A stretch of 64,000 bases of DNA from Eledone cirrhosa. Lineage: Eukaryota. The stretch is taken from NCBI GenBank assembly GCA_964016885.1, contig OZ024741.1, forward strand, positions 291,276,001-291,340,000, written 5' to 3'. Shown one piece after another: positions 1,902 through 58,950 of this stretch. The first letter of the stretch is position 1; the number at the start of each line of letters is the position of its first letter. The position numbers and the translations under genes are program-made. Under the pieces are notes generated by a model, which saw only the letters and a list, made by a program, of their open reading frames with translations, was not told the DNA's origin and searched no databases.

Positions 1902-2160
1902 ATACAATATATTAACAAATGGAGATTATATTTATAAAACCATATTTATTTCATTATACATATTTCAACGGCTACCAAGGCAAACTATGGTGCGCTTTCA
2001 TCAGATAAAATATAATATAGGTTAGTTTTATAAATAAATATTGACATACCCTGAAAAAATGCAACCATTCTGGTTGGAATCTCCTGGATAGTTGAGTGCT
2101 TTATATCAGTTATAAAAATATTTTGCTTGTTGTATCCCAACAAATTAAATATACCCTCTA
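1902..2160. mobile_element. Penelope-like short module, family F
   Basis: Sits in (TA)n; shared with 40075-40204 and 55541-55715; contains a hammerhead on the minus strand and the tail motif TTGAGTGCT at ~2092. Confidence 0.7.
1947..2012 (-). ncRNA. Type I hammerhead ribozyme motif
   Basis: Minus strand: UAUUUUAU-CUGAUGA-[stem II]-GAAA-UAUGUA-UA-AUGAAAUA; stem I pairs over 8 bp including one G-U. Confidence 0.72.
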
Positions 2161-2454
2161 CATATATATATATATATATATATATATATATATAATATAT
2201 TATTTACGTGTAAATTTATTCTATTATACATATTTAGCTCCTTTGAAAAATATGGTCATTAGATCAGAAGTATGAGAGTGTGTGTGTGGGGGGGGGGGGG
2301 GTGTACTCGAAGTACAAATTTCGTCTATTTATTTATAGCATTCATCTTCTGTTTTAGGTAATATGTTATGCACGTGTTTGACATGTATTTATGTATTCAA
2401 GTTATCGTTCTCTTTATACATACTGTATATGCATATGCTTCTTAATTCTTTAGT

Positions 2455-2740
2455 CCCGTAACTCTTTGCCGATTCGTAGGGGCGCTGCAGTGGCATACGG
2501 CGTTTCTTGGACATTTTCAAGCCTTAGGGAGCCTATCCCCTCTTCAAGTCTGAACACAGCAGATTTCTTCCAGAGAAGGATAGAAAGTGAGTGAGAGGAA
2601 CGGAGAAAGAGATATAGAGGAAGAATCTACCTCAGTACTTGACTAGTACTTTATTTATCGAACTTAGAAAGCAGAGAGCCGGAAAGAATAGAGCAAAGCA
2701 TTCTATCCGACGTTCGAACGACTCTGACAATTTGTCGCCC
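2455..2740 (-). mobile_element. tRNA-derived SINE, long-tailed variant (degraded)
   Basis: ctcagtacttgactagtactttatttatcga core plus an extension homologous to 40940-41057. Confidence 0.6.
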
Positions 2741-3292
2741 CATACATATGCACCAATCCATATTATTTATAAGGCTCACTAGTCTGTGGCTAGGGGCCAC
2801 GCAATTACTAGGTGCCTGTCAATGCGTATTTGCTGCAATGGGGTGAATTATTGAAGTGCTTGACGGGAGCCCGGAATACCTGAAAATCCAAGTGCCCGGT
2901 CATGGGTTAATTACGGTCCACCATGTTTGTATGTGTGTGTACTGTTTGTTTTTCAAACCTATATATTCATGTTTAAATCTAAATACGAGCGCATGTGTAT
3001 GTGTATTTATGTAATTGCACGATTCTTCACACATTCACACTTTCACGTTTATCATTAGCTGATATGTGTGTATATGATGAAACCATATTCACATGTATGA
3101 TGTATATGTATATACGAAATATAATAATATATTCTAAAGCTCTCATGTTAAGTAGGCAAAAGGAGAAGGAAGGGAAAGAGTAGGAGGTAATGAGTTTGGG
3201 TGGGAGGAGATTTTGTCATGTCGTGTGTAATTTAGACAAGCACTCTGACATTTTAACATGCCCTTCTCACTCTCACAACACTCCACTCCACC

Positions 3293-3545
3293 TCACCTTC
3301 TAGTACTAACACCAGTACTATATCTGTCTCTACCACAATAACCCCCCACTACAAATATAGCAACTACGATCATAACCACAAGCACAGCTACCACAACCAC
3401 ATTCATTGACGTCACCATCACCACCACCACCACCATCATCACCAGCACTAGCACCAATGCCAACACCATTAAGATCACCAGCACCATCACCAGCACCATA
3501 ACCACCATCGCCACGATCACAACCACCACAACAACCACCCTCACC
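3293..3545. repeat. (CAC/CAT)n low-complexity tract
   Basis: Degenerate trinucleotide repeat producing spurious Val/Gly-rich ORFs. Confidence 0.85.
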
Positions 3546-3637
3546 GTTGTTCATGGTCAATCGTTACGCTAGAAATAGAAGGCACATTTTTCCACCTCAA
3601 ATTAGATTATTCTGTCTTACACATAATAATGATAATG

Positions 3638-3915
3638 ATTTCTACTATAGGCACACGGCCAGCAATTTGGGTAGAGGGGAAAGTCGATTAAATCGACCTC
3701 AGTGCATTACTGGTGCATTTTATCGACCCCGTAAGGATGAAAGGCAAAGCTAACCTCAGCGGGATTTGAATTCAGAACTCAAAGGGCCATAACTCTCTGC
3801 TACGAAGCATAATGATAATAATAATGATTTCTACTTTAGACACAAGGCCAGCAATTTGAAGGGGAGAGGAACGTCGATTAAATCGACCCCAGTGCCTGAC
3901 TGGTACTTTATTCGC
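3638..3915 (-). mobile_element. Two tandem copies of the main tRNA-derived SINE (one partial)
   Basis: ggcacaaggccagcaatt...atcgaccccgtaaggatgaaaggcaaag..aacctc.gcgggatttgaa; (TAA)n tails. Confidence 0.85.
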
Positions 3916-3959
3916 GCTTAATAATAATAATAATAACAAAATAAAATAAATATACTTGT

Positions 3960-55715: not shown

Positions 55716-58134
55716 CATATATATATATATATATAGGTATATTTACATGCATATGTGTATGCATGCCTATATGTATATGTACACACACATATATATATAT
55801 ATATATATATATATATATATATATATATATATATATGTGTGTGTGTGTGTGTGTGTGTGTGTGTGTTCATATATATATATATATCACTATAATTTCATTT
55901 AGATATCTTTAAAAAGTTTCGATAATTTAATTTATTTCACTTACCTTATAGTTTCGATAGAAACCATTCATTGATAATAGTGTAAAACATTGAATCCATA
56001 CAATAAGAAATATATACATATATCCAGATATATTCATCTACATATACAAACATACAGACACAAACATATATAATTATATATATATATATATATATATTAT
56101 ACTATTATATTATATACGTGTGCATGTATTTGTATAGAGAATAGAAGTCTTTTATTATATATTAATACATATGTATATATATTTAACATATATATAAATA
56201 TATACATATATACAAATATATATATATATATATATATATATATATATATATATATATATATATATATATATGTATATATATATGGTAGAGGTGTTTGTTA
56301 TAATCCAAATCGAGCGATGAAAATTGTGACAGATTGTAAGAGCAAAACGTAAAATAGAAAAAAAAAAAAAAAAATTAAATGAAACACAGAACCACCCTAT
56401 CCACCGACCCACACAGTAACACCCATTTCTACCCCGCTGAAAAGACCAACAATAAAGAAATAGAAGAAAAACAAAAAACGTAAAAAGTTACTTTTATAAG
56501 CTCGTTATACTAATGTTATTGGCAGTGTCATCGTTGTTTTCGTGTGTTGTTTTTGCAGTTCTTGTTGATACTGATATGGCCTCAGATTTTTGCTATTCAT
56601 GTTTTTTCGTGATTGTTTTTCTTTTTTTTTTTTGTGGTGGTGTGAATTATCTTTCCTGCGGTAGTTATCGTTGTTGTTGTTGTTGTTGTTGTTGTGCTTG
56701 TGCTTGTGCCTCTTTAACAGTTGATTGCTGAGGACGTTTCTTTAGTCGTCGTTGAAAAGTACGCTTGATATAACACCATCCTTTCATACACACACATGCA
56801 CCACAGACACACCCTCCTTACATACACACACGCATTGCACAGAGATACACGCACACATTGCACACAAACACACTCACACACAGACAAACATGCATACACA
56901 CGGACACACACACGTACATATATACTCATGCACACCCACACATACACACATGAATAGACACTCAGTGAGCCGCACATGCACACACACACACACAAGTACC
57001 CATACAAACACACACACACAAGTACCCATACAAACACACACACGCACATACACAAGTGCACTCCCATACACACACAGACACACACTCACACAAACATACC
57101 TACCTAACGATTCACTCTCGCCCTTTAACTGCAAATTTTATTGTTGTTTATAAACAATCTATGAAAGTCTCTTCTACGGCCATGCATACAATCATTCACA
57201 CACACACACGTATGTGCATACATATACGCACACACACGTACATACACACATACTTCCACCAACGTATAAGCATCGAGGCATACATAAACGTCTACGCATG
57301 AACACATGCAAACTTCACATGGATTATGCATATGTATATATATATAGAGAGAGAGAGGGACATTGAGCGACGTGGAGGTACATGTGTGTTTGATATTTTA
57401 CCACACACACACAAACACACATATATATATATAAATATATGTGTGTGTTGGTGTGTGTGTCAGTGAGTTTGTGTGTGTGTATCAATGTATGTATGTATGA
57501 CTTAATTTCTTTGACTTAATAACACTGTGTCTGTGTGACCGCGCTCCTTTTCCCTTTACATATAACTTGTTGCTGCCCCCCCCTTCTCTGTGTCTCTGTT
57601 CCTCTTTCACTCACTCTCACCAACTCTCACTCTCTCACTTTCTCTCTCTCTTTCTCACTCCTCCTCTCTGTTTTTCAAACGCTGTCTATTTCTCCCCCTC
57701 AATATATGCGTGTGGGAACGCATTTGCATGTATATGTGTACATATATATATATTGTGTGTGTGTATGTGTGTGCTTGTGAGCGTGCCTGCGTGTGTGAGT
57801 GTACATAAATATATATATGTATATATATACATATTAGACCACTCACTTTTCCTTTACCTTTCCTACGGAAATACTTCATATATATATATGTATTTTCGTC
57901 TTTTTCTTCGTTCTTTAAGACTCTATGATGACAGAGACAGCGTGACCCCCGAATGCACCAACAATGTTGTCGGGAGAGTTCGAGACCATGTAATTCCAGT
58001 CCTATTACCGATGACCATGGAGTTTTCTTGTTCCTGTTACCATTTCTGTAACGTCTCTCTGACATCACGTCCCTGAGATGTATCTTCATATATATATATA
58101 TATATATAAATATATATATATATACATATATATA

Positions 58135-58300
58135 TAACGAAGGAGGTGTGGTAAGGAACCAGATGGACCATAACGCACCAGAGTACTCAATACTAAGGGT
58201 AGTAGTGTGGGTTTAGCCCCGACGGCAGAGCTCAAGCCATTTCGACGGCTATTTCTTGTCCAAACGGCTTGAGCTCTGCCGTCAGGGTTAAAAATGTTCA
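58135..58300. mobile_element. Penelope-like short module, family B
   Basis: Tail plus a ccgacggcagagctcaagcc/ggcttgagctctgccgtc fold-back, in (TA)n. Confidence 0.75.
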
Positions 58301-58324
58301 TATATATATATATATATATATATA

Positions 58325-58513
58325 TAATTATTTCTACTTTAGGCACAAGGCCAGCAATTAACCAGTACATTACTGGTACTTTATTTTATCGACACCGTAA
58401 GGATGAAAGGCAAAGTTAACCTCGGCGGGATTTGAACTCAGATTGTAAAGGGACGTAACTATGCTAGAAAGCATGGCGTCCGACCCTCTACCGATACTGC
58501 CAATCCACCGCCC
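58325..58513 (-). mobile_element. Main tRNA-derived SINE, full length
   Basis: Core sequence match through actgccaatccaccgcc. Confidence 0.87.
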
Positions 58514-58577
58514 ATATATATATATATATATAATAAAATGTGGAGAGGAAGCACACGAGTTAGGAAATATATATATA

Positions 58578-58710
58578 TATGAAAACAGGGAGAAAGAGAC
58601 GATTATTAGGAAGAAAAAATTATTTTTTTCCCTAATAAGAGAGAGAGAAATCAAAAGTGAAAAAAATATATTTTTCTTCCTAATAATCGTCTCTTACTTC
58701 CTGTTTTCAT
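58578..58710. repeat. Fold-back insertion in (TA)n
   Basis: atgaaaacagg..agagacgattattaggaagaaaaa / tttttcttcctaataatcgtctct..cctgttttcat. Confidence 0.65.
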
Positions 58711-58814
58711 ATATATATATATATATATATATGTATATATATATATATGTATATATATATATATATATATATATATATATATATATATATATATATATAT
58801 ATATATATATATGT

Positions 58815-58950
58815 ATTAACACACCAGTTAGTTCACCATGCCGAGAACAATTGTTTCGCTTTAAGCGGATCGTCAGCTAAGACATGTAATCTTCAACCCG
58901 ACTCGTCCCATGGACTGAGTGCTCTACCACTATCGATATTACCTTCCATA
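58815..58950. mobile_element. Further PLE-like module with a minimal hammerhead (minus strand, 58841-58880)
   Basis: Minus strand: AG-CUGACGA-uccGCuuaaaGC-GAAA-CAAUUG-UU-CU with palindromic stem III; + strand tail motif actgagtgctc at 58914. Confidence 0.55.

Follow-up and report, generated by a model that had tools for sequence, protein, structure and literature searches.

The window analysed here is a stretch of 64,000 nt of the Eledone cirrhosa genome (assembly GCA_964016885.1, contig OZ024741.1, positions 291,276,001 to 291,340,000 of the forward strand). It contains insertions of Penelope-like elements (PLEs) whose target is (TA)n and which often consist of a short inverted arm joined to an arm with a tail. 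The original prediction for this window described an 11-nt motif near the 3' end of PLE-like families and read it as a conserved cis signal shared within a single PLE lineage, naming priming as one possible role; as a positionally fixed signal of one lineage, the motif has held up. We find that it is the 3' strand of a small hairpin (hairpin 1) located in the non-coding leader of the element, between a predicted hammerhead and the start codon, that a second such hairpin (hairpin 2) lies further downstream in the same leader, and that insertion ends mostly fall just before one or the other.

The architecture of hairpin 1 is RCTC-stem-loop-stem-TN-GAGY. The GAGY of the motif pairs with the upstream RCTC, a 2-nt bulge with T as its first letter sits on the 3' side, and the upper stem is family-specific. 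All nine strings quoted in the original prediction are present in the window, and eight of them indeed lie near an element end, the motif being separated from the (TA)n run by 44 nt (site 53337), 39 nt (30912), 41 nt (7759), 34 nt (43082), 60 nt (2091), 59 nt (55648), 44 nt (26104) and 33 nt (58914). The ninth (55310..55321, minus strand) was rejected as a member: it is 94 nt from (TA)n, has CAGT instead of GAGT and is without a convincing upstream partner. Further sites occur at 19105, 24958, 25782, 29127, 31350, 43854, 54400, 54718 and 58181.

Family B contributes hairpin 1 with a trailing RCTC at 53337..53364 (minus strand), in an insert with both a short and a tailed arm (53293-53423) whose tail also precedes an intact Hydra-type open reading frame (ORF) in locus L147. 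Other family B copies have a mutated 5' strand (58181..58208, minus; insert 58137-58299) or are degenerate (40310..40345, minus, a site added here), and B subfamilies are found at 24958..24985 (minus; insert 24916-25090, short end at 25090), 19077..19116 (plus; hairpin 1 region of insert 18978-19158) and 31328..31363 (plus), where the tail is shortened to 8 nt past the motif. The three plus-strand family C sites are 30901..30923 (insert 30780-30962, whose short end falls 5-6 nt ahead of the hairpin position), a C-like copy at 43841..43863, and 54387..54409 (insert 54235-54448), the last with a hammerhead-type core predicted upstream by pattern match (54321..54343, plus). On the minus strand, family D has hairpin 1 with a 28-nt loop at 7759..7812 (insert 7718-8007), another copy at 25782..25838 (insert 25741-26042), and a 3' strand at 29127..29138 where a different repeat interrupts the upstream part (~29176-29387). 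Family E is represented by 43082..43131 (minus; read by eye, terminal pair mismatched in this copy) and by the 3' strand of a copy without the 5' strand (54718..54729, plus). Hairpin 1 of family F lies at 55634..55657 (plus; insert 55543-55716) and, in degenerate form, at 2074..2103 (plus; insert 1905-2161), where the covariance-model match is weak (E 1.4) and the inverted arm has a predicted hammerhead-type core (1963-2004, minus). The family J copy at 26104..26133 (minus) has A-C as its terminal pair. A variant with a 1-nt bulge, without an ORF link here, occupies 58901..58924 (plus) in insert 58813-58957, whose inverted arm again contains a predicted hammerhead-type core (58854-58876, minus). 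The short-loop covariance model misses the long-loop hairpins of families D and E.

The motif is enriched and positionally fixed against reversed or shuffled controls, both genome-wide and when junctions are collected blind to it. Genome-wide, ATYGAGYRCTC placed 25-55 nt before (TA)5 gives 19,531 forward-strand matches vs 81 for the reversed control; repeated registers inflate the minus-strand count. Without most of the dominant family, the anchored pattern still returns 2659/2660 genomic matches vs 8/3 in the control. Of 644 complex (TA)n junctions collected blind to the motif from 464 kb that take in the window and its surroundings, 51 have it at a distance of 20-95 nt from the end, vs 0-5 in 20 dinucleotide shuffles, and 27 sense-strand matches sit at 40-49 nt. 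Beyond the motif the tails are dissimilar, as had been claimed: for the distal tails of seven window families, 0/21 pairs align at p<0.05 (lowest 0.053), which speaks against simple recent common ancestry of the tails.

Folding the tails places the motif in a common hairpin, so that the conserved unit is the hairpin, with its 5' strand upstream of the motif, rather than the 11-mer. A motif-blind search for fold-back insertions found 124, of which 114 are asymmetric, and these supplied 52 tail clusters. CTC..GAG with an upper stem is present in 24 of the clusters; under coarser clustering the hairpin is found in 16/38, vs a shuffled mean of 0.8 and maximum of 4. When neither the size of the bulge nor the terminal pair was prescribed, 23 of these 24 clusters had a 2-nt bulge, and the terminal pair was A:T in 16, G:C in 7, G:T in 1 and A:C in 0 (Fisher p 2e-5, uncorrected for kinship). 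Loop length ranges from 3 to 61 nt. Aligning 15 short-loop examples, we find that 96% of cells pair, that two-sided changes occur at 5/8 pairs and that the covariation score is reached by 0/500 shuffles; the same fold is recovered by RNAalifold. Among the internal non-Watson-Crick pairs, G-U is found in 30 copies vs A-C in 4 (10 vs 3 at the cluster level), an excess that favours the sense strand. The hairpin has no Rfam match.

Which elements carry this hairpin became evident from full-length copies, in which the tails of families B, C, D, E, F, G, H, I and M are joined to Hydra-type ORFs. [quoted passage not shown] RWR/RWK and DKT (not DKG) are found in 4/4 aligned carrier proteins, with RWR starts also in C, D and E, and reading the four by eye shows a CxCX5C linker and CxxC plus CxH around the E and N residues, without CCHH. 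RWR/RWK, DKT, CxCX5C, a C-terminal GIY-YIG and the lack of CCHH are given as diagnostic of the Hydra clade in the text of Craig et al. 2021, which places it among PLEs with a C-terminal endonuclease (PMC8557442). By these protein motifs, on which the clade call rests, the carriers are Hydra-clade PLEs; on inspection by eye they are similar to Hydra-1_Obim and Hydra-1_Ajap. The published size of "generally <3 kb", given as a tendency, is exceeded by B, with a repeat of 3.54 kb, and by M, with one of 3.33 kb. The families had been called unrelated; their proteins, mutually 41-55% identical, make them divergent members of one clade, and their homology implies a motif that a single lineage has passed on and retained as the flanking sequence changed. 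Hammerhead-type cores are predicted by pattern in families C, F and N and in locus L287, and the family B core is deviant.

The CX2-5CxxC linker and CCHH endonuclease of Neptune/Naiad type are absent from the motif-bearing families. Elements of Neptune type and others outside Hydra, retrieved with the Pfam GIY-YIG domain, served as controls, and 0/24 of the Neptune-type ends picked in this way have the hairpin. The intact Hydra-type proteins of L147, L149 and L230 have no Pfam match; 846 representatives match proteins of this type at E 1e-30 or better, so the clade may escape Pfam-based annotation. A predicted protein model (predicted local distance difference test, pLDDT, 93.5) has TERT as its closest solved fold (3du5, E 1e-8), and no sequence relative was found in the PDB, nor any relative in a viral sequence collection. 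Rfam gave no match on two full elements and, on the window, solely microsatellite-driven miRNA matches under gathering scores among the 150 of 540 listed.

The leader contains the hairpin twice. Tandem full-length B copies show a second hairpin beginning 78 nt after the first, just beyond the tailed end, and hairpin 2 is likewise present in families D, F, G, H, I, J, M and N; its pattern has 27 genomic matches vs 0 in the control. For family E it was predicted beforehand and then found 6 nt past the tailed end (489 matches vs 0). Spacing between the hairpins is 76-164 nt in references with both well placed. Hairpin 2 precedes the ATG by 20, 21, 24, 26, 33, 33 and 69 nt in seven families; since both hairpins lie before the ATG at varying offsets they are non-coding, and a coding motif at the ORF start was rejected. 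The closing pair is A:T in hairpin 1 and G:C in hairpin 2 in 8/9 references, and these distinct pairs favour local pairing over a cross-paired fold.

The arrangement is also found outside this genome. Locus L287, from another organism and with a protein 37% identical, has both hairpins before the ATG, and the ends of L288/L289 lie 2-8 nt before the second hairpin. A metagenome scan yielded eight loci: three belong to a single Hydra family that has the hairpins, and the other five are decayed fragments in which no clear hairpin is seen. Read by eye, the published sea-cucumber consensus Hydra-1_Ajap starts at its 5' end with two such hairpins, Hydra-2_Ajap and Hydra-2_Amil have one at the end, Hydra-1_Amil and Hydra-1_Crog have a partial or variant hairpin, and none was seen in Hydra-1_Obim. 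Exact motif 10-mers are absent from the part of the Craig et al. supplement that was available (PMC8557442), as the published copies there are variants. The 1.3-kb tandem family of locus L237 keeps both hairpins along with a hammerhead-type core but has no PLE protein match; it is likely a non-autonomous rider, and retention of both hairpins by a non-coding family is as expected of a cis signal used in trans. Another scan returned 30 loci, 21 of which (L176-L196) are an apparently unrelated 54-nt tandem array containing motif-like words; these were left out.

The two hairpins coincide with two places at which insertions end. We mapped 298 ends on leaders: 130 lie immediately ahead of hairpin 1, 159 immediately ahead of hairpin 2, and the other 9 at different points of the range covered, with TA microhomology turning each end into an ambiguity interval. 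The short ends, those of the inverted arm, stop about 6 nt ahead of hairpin 1, and the tailed ends stop at about this distance ahead of hairpin 2, such that hairpin 1 is included in the tailed end and hairpin 2 excluded from it. With family C excluded, 6 nt is the top distance, lying inside the interval for 77/118 short and 108/147 long ends, and it falls within the modal interval of each of B, D, G, H and M; family F short ends prefer 5 nt. The ends track the hairpin base even as loop length changes. It is therefore this spacing of about 6 nt between end and hairpin base that is fixed, and not the 25-60 nt between motif and end that had been proposed. Two-armed insertions are short+long in 61/64 cases, with 0 short+short and 0 long+long, and in 17/17 cases in the unselected 464 kb; none of 10 symmetric fold-backs resembled a hairpin family by eye. 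Raw DNA reads from three runs break into TA at both predicted places (8,666-12,175 and 2,886-3,354 reads per run), the long:short ratio not being meaningful as the runs are reduced-representation DNA. In family B the 5' reach of the arms often stops at a single hot spot (L147:5843-5845), which appears to lie in the hammerhead stem II loop and not at the expected cleavage site. Taken together, the original observation is partly confirmed and its interpretation partly supported.

We consider it probable, at roughly two chances in three, that each of the two leader hairpins positions the RT to start about 6 nt upstream on RNA. A tandem transcript would carry both hairpins, and the RT would bind them at the RNA level on this one shared molecule. 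The endonuclease would cut both (TA)n strands; one target 3' end would prime at hairpin 1 and yield the short inverted arm, the other would prime at hairpin 2 and yield the tailed arm, and the two cDNAs would join head to head. Priming at two hairpins would make the tail the distance between them, and hairpin 1 would be copied into the tailed end, where the motif is visible, with hairpin 2 left behind. The more specific proposal of two RT molecules on one RNA, with the hairpins as a 6-nt ruler and priming from both strands of a double-strand break, seems to us evenly balanced between true and false. A dimer prediction for residues 1-490 scored 0.00 with the alignment not used, and carries no weight either way.

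The same genomic ends would be predicted if the hairpins caused the RNA to be cut, or its 3' end to be formed, about 6 nt upstream of them, with ordinary target-primed reverse transcription beginning at the ends so made. The text of Frangieh et al. 2024, on the green anole Poseidon element PAc, reports RNA-seq read ends on the initiation sites, which would suit such processing, but also that the protein starts internally on longer RNA in vitro (PMC11167929). Moreover, the 61/64 short+long pairing is more easily explained by one RNA with both sites than by a mixture of two cut RNAs, and we regard processing as unlikely. Somewhat less likely still is a single start at hairpin 2, after which the cDNA folds back and its returning strand stops or is joined at hairpin 1. 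Short+long pairing would follow automatically from this, self-priming has been proposed for PLE head-to-head palindromes in the text of PMC3846280, and the arms have equal 5' reach in 11/21 family B fold-backs. Yet in 6/21 (one probably misaligned) the short arm outreaches the tailed arm that must template it, and both read joints and inserts 1905-2161 and 58813-58957 show tailed arms that end within the tail next to short arms of greater length. Later deletions within palindromes could mimic such cases. The start and the stop would need a common motif and spacing.

Recognition of a DNA site in the element's own tail by the GIY-YIG endonuclease, be it the palindromic GAGYRCTC or a DNA hairpin, appears very improbable. 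Recognition by the Penelope endonuclease of D. virilis is reported to have required the tail (cited in the text of PMC11167929), and RCYY frequently follows GAGY. However, the palindrome, to which the original prediction had given importance, has 0 compensatory changes, a score as high in 495/500 shuffles and an unpaired centre in 6/15; several families keep the hairpin without RCTY after GAGY, and the G-U bias supports a sense single strand. The least probable of the alternatives, by a small step, is a neutral relic of ancestry, or a leader translation or promoter element unrelated to insertion ends. The families are homologous and hairpin 2 does sit 20-69 nt before the ATG, but tail similarity is gone while the stems covary around loops of 3-61 nt, and the ends follow the hairpin base through changes in loop length.

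Several results weigh against two hairpins that each position the RT. The 15-sequence alignment was built from sequences picked as hairpins, and single hairpins fold weakly (z -0.3 to -1.6), which might be expected if protein holds them. The upper stem of hairpin 2 has 0-4 pairs and is shorter than that of hairpin 1, and the minimum-energy fold of the B and E leaders pairs the 5' strand of hairpin 1 with the 3' strand of hairpin 2. No canonical hairpin 2 was found in family C, a Hydra element with an intact ORF and a normal long end; its second site (L325-L344) has a GCAC/GTGC stem alone, 7-9 nt after the end. This stem has A:T in place of a T:A pair that does not vary elsewhere, and it is possibly a compensated variant. 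The hairpin is clear in just 3/6 published Hydra consensuses. As for the ends, their mapping covered the leader between a point 30 nt ahead of hairpin 1 and one 20 nt past hairpin 2, about 30% are not compatible with 6 nt, and for short ends 5 nt fits nearly as well (75 vs 77), blurred by TA microhomology. Family E long ends read 2-3 nt, which we attribute to a TAT register slip in the reference used.

Other elements in and around the window differ from these families. Family A, a PLE without motif or hairpin, as had been noted, served as negative control (fold-back at 9377..10155, without assigned strand). Its ORF begins within the terminal repeat (window 9377-10155 and 16994-17631; L295-L324), as in PAc, and its 55-60 nt tail is therefore coding. 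The short word AATATCG follows both ends of family A and may be a different twin signal, or merely TA microhomology plus CG. One Neptune-type family forms symmetric tailless fold-backs, unlike the Hydra families (window 58581-58708; elsewhere L068:497-2442, L076:823-2423 and L246:4770-4847). By eye, ORFs at 191-1189 and 60042-60910 resemble RT and zinc-finger remnants of retrotransposons that lack long terminal repeats (non-LTR). A short interspersed element (SINE)-like repeat of about 200 nt has more than 10 copies in the window, for instance at 15280-15511, 31611-31807 and 58315-58514.

The tail and inverted arm of PLEs have long been described, and the available text of the 2024 in vitro work names no signal that chooses the two starts (PMC11167929). 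A small, covarying and duplicated candidate signal, in a clade related to telomerase, now comes with an exact prediction, a start about 6 nt upstream of each copy, and makes the question of the tail testable with few point mutants. If programmed twin priming is true, it would explain the PLE tail together with the asymmetric inverted insertion, and a short module would suffice to mobilise any upstream RNA. The twin hairpins may also define a minimal cis module for non-coding riders and for an RNA-templated insertion tool. In literature searches, with most subscription papers outside reach, we found the hairpin and its duplication not described, nor are they in the available text of PMC4209133, PMC7229834, PMC3846280, PMC13282606 and bioRxiv 10.64898/2026.07.22.740005. 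The available text of PMC8557442 mentions no tail motif or hairpin and has 0 occurrences of 'palindrom'.

Known systems offer some parallels to this arrangement. During LINE-1 twin priming, both target strands prime on one RNA and produce an inverted segment, and the second priming site is set by chance microhomology; here, by contrast, both sites are fixed and marked by conserved structure. Hepadnaviral epsilon and telomerase RNA elements are structured RT-binding signals. Like them, a small stem-loop would position the RT on its template, whereas the signal here lies 3' of the first copied base, is duplicated, and would have target DNA as primer, not protein. With the Hydra clade as described in the text of Craig et al., our families share the protein motifs, (TA)n targets and an inverted arm with optional tail, and the hammerhead-type cores predicted in some of them would correspond to its hammerhead in the 3' region; their tails are mostly 63-170 nt vs 30-40 nt, and their units reach 3.5 kb vs <3 kb (PMC8557442). 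PAc is reported to start internally in vitro at two adjacent sites that bound the tail and to cut and extend both DNA strands, and it resembles the present case in these respects and in its AT-rich target (PMC11167929). Unlike here, the PAc sites lie inside the ORF and in one AC-rich stem-loop, in an element of a different clade, and the text available mentions neither a signal duplicated 3' of each start nor a spacing that is fixed (PMC11167929). The clade, the tail and dual initiation are already published, and what appears to be new is the covarying hairpin, its duplication and the spacing of about 6 nt between hairpin and end.

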